Below are positions 2,643 to 3,548 of a stretch of DNA of 5,055 nt, piece by piece. Source of the stretch: Enterobacteria phage CL707; the sequence record EF120459.1; one strand, written 5' to 3'. Positions within the stretch are counted from its first letter, which is position 1, and each line of letters begins with the position of its first letter. Under the pieces are notes generated by a model. That model ran no database searches, was not told the DNA's origin, and was given only the letters and a program-made list of their open reading frames with translations. The translations under genes and the position numbers were made by a program.

Positions 2643-3548
2643 TCAATGCTTATTTGGGAGTGCTGGTTTTTTTATCGACTCTAATAGCTCGGAGGCGTTA
2701 CTAATCTTTTTGTTCCCAAGGTAATTTGGCAGTTTTTCCATTGCGTAATTATCGTGTAGCCATTTTCTGAACACGCCAAGTGCCTCAATAGGATAAATCC
2801 AAGCTGTTATATGCTTATTTGCAGCTGACTGCCTGTAATTTTCGGGGAATAAATGTGGGTACTGCACCCTTTCCCCGAATTTCTCAGATAGCCCATTAGC
2901 TGTCCAATACTTTCCCCAGTGAATTCCAACACTTCCATCCAAAGATGTGGTGTCATCCATTGGGAATCCTCCTCCGATCAGGTTCATGGCAATGTCAGCT
3001 ATCTCTCTGAATACTGCAAAATGAGTTGTCGGTATCTGATCGTTTAGCTTAATCCTTGCTCTATAGTTCTCGAATGAGATATCTATTGAAGCATTTGGGT
3101 TGTAATTTGACTTTTCATAAATCATTCGCTTAAGCGTGTACTCAGCCAAGCGAACAAAATTACCTATTGCGACTGACCTATCAAAATTGGTGGCATCTAG
3201 AGCGTAGTAACGGAGGATAGCCATGCAAACATAGTCAGGATAAGCATGAGTTTCCACGTTTGAGCTATTTAAAACGCGAGTGTATAGCTTTTCGACGTTA
3301 TGAAACCCTTTCTCAGCTAAATACGCAGCTACTTTTTGACCTCTGGGTTTGTTTTTCTCTGTGTTCCAGTTTGATGTGAACACCCTCAGTGGCGTGTCAT
3401 CAATGCCGCATAACTTTGCGAGACCGTAGAGAGTTAGGTAAGGAGTTCCATCATTGAGAACGCCCATAGGAATATCATCAGAAACAACCTCTACTACAGG
3501 GAAAAGCTGCATTTGATGCAGGGATTCGCTATTGCTGTTAATCGACAT
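2643..3548 (-). CDS. Hypothetical 301-aa protein in the rexAB-equivalent slot downstream of cI; candidate prophage-encoded defence or abortive-infection protein, possibly BstA-like with a KilA-N/Bro-N-type N-terminal region
   Basis: Complete ORF, same strand and immediately downstream of cI (86-bp spacer), with AAGGA upstream of the ATG and a terminator just past the stop. It does not resemble lambda RexA as remembered. The N-terminal stretch VVEVVSDDIPMGVLNDGTPYLTLYGLAKLCGID looks like KilA-N/Bro-N phage DNA-binding domains. The functional assignment is inference from position and this motif. Confidence 0.8.
   Translation of the reverse strand: MSINSNSESLHQMQLFPVVEVVSDDIPMGVLNDGTPYLTLYGLAKLCGIDDTPLRVFTSNWNTEKNKPRGQKVAAYLAEKGFHNVEKLYTRVLNSSNVETHAYPDYVCMAILRYYALDATNFDRSVAIGNFVRLAEYTLKRMIYEKSNYNPNASIDISFENYRARIKLNDQIPTTHFAVFREIADIAMNLIGGGFPMDDTTSLDGSVGIHWGKYWTANGLSEKFGERVQYPHLFPENYRQSAANKHITAWIYPIEALGVFRKWLHDNYAMEKLPNYLGNKKISNASELLESIKKPALPNKH

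Follow-up and report, generated by a model that had tools for sequence, protein, structure and literature searches.

Identity of the gene between cI and oL

What lies between the repressor gene cI and the operator oL, in the interval that carries rexA and rexB in phage lambda, is the question raised by a 5,055-nucleotide stretch of DNA from Enterobacteria phage CL707 (sequence record EF120459.1; this whole stretch is called the window below). The window contains the immunity region of a lambdoid prophage, and a first reading of its letters alone had proposed that an unrecognised gene of 301 codons at positions 2643..3548 fills the interval as a candidate prophage defence, perhaps of the BstA family. 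All coordinates given in that original prediction hold. From the sequence comparisons described here we conclude that the gene is almost certainly bstA(Ec), a prophage abortive-infection defence gene, in the very allele that was tested experimentally in 2021.

Homology to BstA extends over the full length of the protein. The PADLOC BstA model PDLC02356 matched residues 8–286 (model positions 4–281 of 292, E=1.3e-105), and PHROG 6287, which is described as ‘BstA abortive infection system, replication inhibitor’, matched residues 5–301 (E=6e-133). A tblastn search of phage genomes returned the BstA protein of BTP1 (st313-td) with 42.5% identity over 99% of the protein, as well as homologues in Klebsiella and Pseudomonas phages; the published identity between BstA(Ec) and BstA(BTP1) is 41.7% (PMC8585504). 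An alignment of 48 homologues contains 31 invariant columns, and the precomputed annotation of a protein collection assigns the BstA_C domain (PF26567) to the protein. The two full-length profile matches and the identity to BTP1 bear out the proposal of a single-protein prophage defence of the BstA family. PADLOC gave no defence-system match besides BstA, its other match being to a weak generic helix-turn-helix (HTH) model (E=0.0015).

The gene is not merely a homologue of BstA and is already known, because both the protein and its DNA are identical to the studied allele. An exact-sequence look-up found the 301-residue sequence on 645 contigs. It is present in E. coli NCTC10963 (CAADJH010000002.1, assembly GCA_900706885.1, positions 1520979–1521884; locus L009 of our set), and the supplement of Owen et al. 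2021 names the same strain as the source of BstA(Ec) (NZ_CAADJH010000002.1, 1521881–1520985; PMC8585504). The 3′ parts of the cloning primers of that study match the window at 3611..3634 and, except for one G of a G-run, at 2582..2603; the latter is the site of the reverse primer, with which bstA(Ec) was cloned together with its ‘native Rho-independent terminator’ (PMC8585504). Between positions 2283 and 4770 the window and L009 show 3 differences in 2488 bp (at 2596, 2379 and 2302), all of which fall outside the bstA coding sequence (CDS), its 86-bp leader and its terminator. We find nothing that argues against the identification. The description of the gene as unrecognised therefore does not stand, since its exact product is the published BstA(Ec) of NCTC10963; the defence phenotype, the self-immunity and the argument from rexAB synteny have likewise all been published.

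Published activities of BstA and aba

The mechanism described by Owen et al. (2021, Cell Host Microbe 29:1620; PMC8585504) was worked out mostly with BstA(BTP1). BstA is made from the prophage in the lysogen; upon lytic replication of a heterologous phage it co-localises with the replicating phage DNA, phage DNA replication fails, and the infected cell dies without releasing progeny, with the result that the population is protected (abortive infection). The assays of abortive infection and of the replication block used BstA(BTP1). When present alone in S. Typhimurium LT2, BstA(Ec) gave protection against Salmonella phages similar to that given by BstA(BTP1), and against coliphages in MG1655 it was slightly less active than BstA(BTP1); phage BTP1 was blocked by BstA(Ec) and not by BstA(BTP1) (PMC8585504).

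A prophage escapes its own BstA by means of aba, which in BTP1 is a 63-bp DNA element that extends from −29 to +34 of bstA and ends in CCCGCC direct repeats. Single-base changes in either of these repeats abolish its function. The element acts as DNA rather than as RNA or peptide, requires high copy number, and is specific for its cognate BstA: P22 carrying the bstA(Ec) locus was immune to BstA(Ec) only. The manner in which BstA and aba interact was left as an open question in that study (PMC8585504).

A predicted aba element at the start of bstA(Ec)

The original prediction had suggested looking for an aba-like element inside the ORF (open reading frame). Repeats with the appropriate architecture are indeed present in the window, at a different place from that proposed: they straddle the start codon. 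The corresponding features are as follows.

3517..3583, minus strand: predicted aba(Ec) self-immunity DNA element, ~67 bp, spanning the bstA start codon; positional equivalent of BTP1 aba
3574..3582, minus strand: upstream repeat copy, ATCCCTACA, at −34 to −26 as counted from the first base of the ATG (A = 0)
3517..3525, minus strand: downstream repeat copy, ATCCCTGCA, in codons 8–11, 57 bp after the upstream copy

The motif ATCCCTRCA occurs twice in the window (0.07 occurrences expected). Measured from a conserved MGV codon of the family, the two repeats begin at −115 and −58 in the window (57 bp apart) and at −115 and −59 in BTP1 (56 bp apart). We compared 80 bstA loci from viral contigs, together with E. 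coli and phage loci, using that invariant codon as the anchor and counting exact direct repeats of at least 6 nt whose first copy lies at −120..−110 and whose spacing is 56 or 57 bp. Such a repeat was found in 31 of 70 distinct bstA loci, as compared with a mean of 0.58 loci per equal-sized search window at other positions and spacings (the largest independent search window gave 9). Within a locus, the two repeat halves match at 7.04 of 12 positions, versus 3.5–4.5 at shifted spacings. Pairing upstream and downstream halves across loci gave 5.08 of 12, and the observed value was reached in 0 of 5000 cis/trans permutations. The repeats comprise 16 distinct lineage-specific cores (for example CCCGCCA, GATCCC, GATCGC, CCACCA, ACAGCA, GGxCAGCA and TGGTCA), and therefore the two copies change together.

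These position-fixed repeats support an aba architecture that is shared across the family and that would place aba(Ec) at about 3517..3583. Bounded by ATCCCTRCA repeats 57 bp apart, aba(Ec) would neutralise BstA(Ec) once amplified on the replicating prophage genome. Folding of the RNA of the leader and the 5′ coding region revealed nothing unusual (z = −0.14), in agreement with the published DNA-based action of aba.

It is possible, if rather unlikely, that the repeats around the start codon are not aba at all, and instead serve translational or transcriptional control or arise merely from the conservation of N-terminal codons. The downstream copy lies in coding sequence, a conserved Shine-Dalgarno box (AAGGAAATCA) lies between the repeats, and the upstream copies are mismatched in some relatives, all of which would suit such a role. 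Codon conservation fits poorly with the location of the downstream copy, which lies in codons of a poorly conserved N-terminal tail that is predicted to be disordered, and with the co-variation of the non-coding upstream copy with the downstream copy over 16 repeat types; RNA-level control is likewise disfavoured by the unremarkable folding of the region and by the behaviour of the BTP1 element, which is inactivated by a base change in either repeat and works neither as RNA nor as peptide (PMC8585504).

The assignment of aba(Ec) to these repeats is weakened by several observations. The two copies in the window match at 8 of 9 positions, and Owen et al. transferred bstA(Ec) only as an entire locus, upstream sequence included (PMC8585504). 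Moreover, a set of relatives (L025, L026, L027 and the pair L033/L035), whose proteins are 70–88% identical to BstA(Ec) and carry the same helix (discussed below), keep the downstream copy (GATCCC or AATCCC) with a diverged upstream copy (GATCGG, GATTGG, GAGACC or GATCTG, at about −120..−105 from the MGV codon). Decayed or re-specified self-immunity, or recombination of the upstream region, are possible causes of that divergence.

Additional short sequences surround the predicted element. A third partial repeat, TCCCTG (3497..3502, minus strand), lies 22 bp after the downstream repeat. The sequence TGTAGG (3596..3601, minus strand) and the upstream repeat, which lies 14 nt after it, make up an imperfect inverted repeat. 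A 6-bp hairpin (CTGCAT-CAA-ATGCAG, 3521..3507) overlaps the downstream repeat.

Predicted protein fold and its association with repeat type

An AlphaFold2 model, computed from an alignment of the 48 homologues collected by protein search, is confident, with a predicted local distance difference test (pLDDT) score of 86.8 and a predicted template modelling (pTM) score of 0.60, a combination that is consistent with two loosely packed domains. Residues 1–13 are modelled as disordered (pLDDT <50). The N-terminal half resembles a DNA-binding domain, in which three short strands lead into two helices arranged like an HTH (residues 40–47 and 51–59), and the C-terminal half, which corresponds to the BstA_C domain, is mostly helical. 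The model thus displays the two-domain layout of BstA proteins (a KilA-N-like domain at the N terminus and a C-terminal BstA_C domain, with a boundary near residue 155), with a KilA-N likeness that is weak.

The N-terminal region had been proposed from the letters to resemble KilA-N and Bro-N domains, and this is upheld at the level of the fold and not at the level of family profiles. A Foldseek comparison with viral models gave weak matches that are enriched for the names antirepressor, KilA-N and Bro-N. The KilA-N and Bro-N hidden Markov models (HMMs) of Pfam matched none of the 48 homologues, among which we saw only sporadic weak HTH-type matches; membership of the KilA-N (PF04383) or Bro-N families was accordingly not found. 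‘KilA-N-like’ is acceptable as a description of the modelled fold, in the sense used by Owen et al., with the caveat that the fold scores behind this assignment are weak. A search of PDB sequences with a 5-member profile returned nothing meaningful (best match 4ham, E=0.83), and the BstA_C domain has no counterpart among the solved structures searched.

The repeat cores sort with the second HTH helix (residues about 49–60). All 22 rows of the comparison that carry the helix IDDTPLRVFT have GATCCC as their downstream copy. The helix IDEAPLRxFT is associated with GATCGC/GATCGG: the downstream copy is GATCGC in 7 of 7 loci, 6 of those 7 also have a G at the equivalent position of their upstream copy, and this helix is found on two different backgrounds of the C-terminal domain. 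The helix VHHxVIQDI is accompanied by CCGCCA both in Salmonella BTP1 and in Pseudomonas phage D14H. Given the C-terminal domain, the partial correlations between repeat type and helix are moderate (0.31 and 0.55).

We suggest that the N-terminal, HTH-containing domain probably reads the repeats, which would explain why aba is cognate-specific. On these comparisons, the odds are about even that the second HTH helix is the recognition helix that does so. Two results tell against that narrower assignment: the partial correlation between upstream-repeat similarity and helix identity, given residues 66–150, is only 0.09, and the association of helix and repeat is statistically inseparable from that of the remaining N-terminal domain and from linkage. 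Because the correlation disappeared once the remainder of that domain was taken into account, we keep a helix-specific readout only as a working hypothesis.

With an equal balance of confidence and doubt, we propose a family-wide aba made of two lineage-specific repeats at a spacing of 56–57 bp that change with helix ~49–60, such that ~35 upstream nucleotides and the first ~60 codons would form a specificity cassette. One repeat of this putative cassette would lie upstream of the Shine-Dalgarno sequence and the other in codons of the disordered tail. If this arrangement is correct, the pairing of a DNA site with its reader in one cassette would be the reason that every BstA comes with an aba of its own and that the two stay together in recombinants; aba(Ec) would be 3517..3583, with ATCCCTRCA as its determinant.

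Organization of the cI–bstA–oL region

The features of the window around bstA(Ec) are listed below.

2643..3548, minus strand: bstA(Ec) CDS, 301 aa, stop codon included (ORF list and family profiles)
3635..4348, minus strand: cI, lambda-type repressor, 237 aa (HTH_3 and Peptidase_S24)
3549..3634, minus strand: cI–bstA spacer, 86 bp, with the Shine-Dalgarno sequence AAGGA at 3561..3565
2601..2632, minus strand: Rho-independent terminator of bstA, a stem-loop at 2632..2611 followed by a T-rich tail (terminator scan)
2392..2452, plus strand: oL1–oL2–oL3, exact pattern matches to phage lambda
2418..2390, minus strand: pL-like promoter (promoter scan)
2319..2333: nutL boxB, found downstream of oL1
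1820..2146: N gene

The 301-codon ORF is co-oriented with cI and separated from it by 86 bp, as had been described, and the terminator scan recovered the intrinsic terminator, a strong hairpin (6 of 8 stem pairs are G-C), ahead of oL. A single gene thus does occupy the slot of rexA–rexB, flanked by cI, the terminator and the lambda-identical oL1–3, the last of which mark the far boundary of the cI–oL ‘moron’ slot. The gene shows the position typical of its family (immediately downstream of the repressor gene, co-oriented with it and followed by its own Rho-independent terminator). In every locus that we examined bstA lies downstream of cI, and a co-oriented repressor–bstA pair with its own terminator recurs at 10 further E. 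coli loci, as it does in Salmonella, Klebsiella and Pseudomonas phages.

Like oL1–3, oR2 is an exact match to lambda. By eye, oR1-like (4406..4422) and oR3-like (4359..4375) sites each appear to be one base off from the lambda operators. In its immunity specificity the prophage is essentially the same as lambda: because its operators essentially match lambda and its cI is lambda-like, this is a lambda-immunity prophage with bstA in place of rexAB.

The repressor gene is the presumed upstream member of a cI–bstA transcription unit. Scanning of the 86-bp spacer found no terminator-like site and no minus-strand promoter-like site, from which we infer that the cI (pRM) transcript would read through into bstA. 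Owen et al. described bstA as lying downstream of the repressor gene and ‘presumably’ sharing its promoter, and they had already pointed out the correspondence of this slot to lambda rexAB (PMC8585504).

Neighbouring elements and alternative roles of the gene

Two further features lie on the far side of N.

1..1318: IS10, nearly complete (IS4-family ‘ISVsa5’ in RefSeq annotation), with its outside end CTGATGAATCCCC... at 1318 and running off the edge of the window
1368..1811, minus strand: 147-aa ORF directly downstream of N

The insertion element, which contains an Rfam RNA-OUT match (1204..1273, 98.8 bits), interrupts the pL operon 50 bp downstream of the 147-aa ORF. With this element ~1.3 kb from bstA, the prophage may be defective; the insertion may cripple recombination, excision and other functions expressed from pL. 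With the rest of the prophage beyond the window, an intact bstA could be the silent passenger of a decaying prophage with no current defence role here. We consider this very improbable, since the cI gene, the oR and oL operators, the bstA CDS, its leader and its terminator are all intact and hardly differ from their counterparts in the functional NCTC10963 locus, bstA expression would be tied to the repressor-side transcript rather than to pL, and a defective prophage can still express genes linked to cI.

Even less probable is that the protein is an antirepressor or another prophage-switch regulator of the KilA-N/Bro-N type rather than a defence protein, for the family HMM matches BstA over its full length and not ANT, KilA-N or Bro-N (Pfam KilA-N and Bro-N being absent from all 48 homologues), expression of the identical protein by itself makes cells phage-resistant (PMC8585504), and an antirepressor co-transcribed with cI in the lysogen would be expected to destabilise lysogeny; the BstA profile matches and the published phenotype led us to reject it. 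A RexAB-like identity was also rejected: there is a single gene, PADLOC gave no RexA- or RexB-type match, and position alone is in common. The identification as bstA(Ec) is retained.

The slot occupied by the 147-aa ORF is hypervariable, with related prophages carrying an Nmad5-family gene or a gene for a 149-aa or a 289-aa protein. The ORF itself has no match in Pfam, PHROGs, PADLOC or NCBIfam. About 10 complete E. coli genomes carry it, for the most part those of avian pathogenic strains. Its product shares 97% identity with a phage phiv205-1 protein and 60% with proteins from two Xanthomonas phages. The ORF may be a further moron, or may act in defence or counter-defence.

Identical copies of bstA(Ec) occur in two prophages of a single genome (L006 and L007; CP074031.1, E. 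coli PK12), where the gene adjoins a different, 231-aa repressor and a different cro. The bstA cassette (conserved over a stretch that corresponds to about 2515..4045 of the window) therefore moves between immunity types. Two prophages that share one BstA/aba pair within a cell would each be immune to the other.

Annotation of bstA(Ec) and significance of the finding

Scans of the protein against local copies of Pfam-A (0 matches at E<=1) and NCBIfam (no match) were empty. These nulls reflect the library copies and not novelty, because the precomputed annotation holds the BstA_C family. In RefSeq the protein goes by the name ‘hypothetical protein’ in many complete genomes, and by ‘BstA C-terminal domain-containing protein’ elsewhere. 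Whether bstA(Ec) is recognised thus depends on the version of the library, and annotation trails the literature for this gene. With such labels and empty local scans, a first-pass reader cannot recognise it.

Since BstA(Ec) had been characterised before and the argument from the rexAB slot has been printed, the finding carries no weight as a discovery. What it adds is limited to a testable prediction for the position of aba(Ec) and for the determinants of aba specificity in the family. Within the literature that was searchable, we found no mechanistic papers on BstA or aba from 2022 onwards, just surveys that cite the system.

Comparison with known systems

The KilA-N, Bro-N and APSES domains, as found in phage antirepressors and Mbp1, differ from the present protein both in the lack of any HMM-level match among the 48 homologues and in its possession of the BstA_C domain, which sets it apart from the solved structures searched.

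Lambda RexAB is, like BstA, an abortive-infection defence that is expressed with the repressor in the lysogen. The two share their slot between cI and oL/pL and their orientation, and position is the only feature in common: RexAB has no sequence relationship to BstA, and neither RexA/RexB homology nor a two-gene arrangement of sensor and channel is found here. RexAB consists of a two-protein sensor and membrane ion channel, whereas BstA, one soluble DNA-associated protein, acts by blocking the replication of phage DNA and comes with a self-immunity element that is DNA-based.

The locus is closest to BstA(Ec) of NCTC10963 (E4V89_RS07420), with which it shares an identical 301-aa protein, identical DNA across the CDS, the 86-bp leader and the terminator, and the same lambda-type cI/cro/oL context. 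It differs from that locus in the presence of IS10 and of a different 147-aa gene downstream of N, in the divergence of the cII side after position 4770, and, downstream of the terminator, in one extra G in the G-run at 2596.

BstA(BTP1) (st313-td, STMMW_03531) also follows cI, has its own terminator and a two-domain layout, and carries direct repeats that straddle the start codon in the same architecture. The repeat is CCCGCCA in BTP1 and ATCCCTRCA in the window, and the putative recognition helix is VHHSVIQDI in BTP1 and IDDTPLRVF in the window. These differences in repeat and helix fit both the published cognate specificity of aba and the one-way block of phage BTP1 by BstA(Ec).
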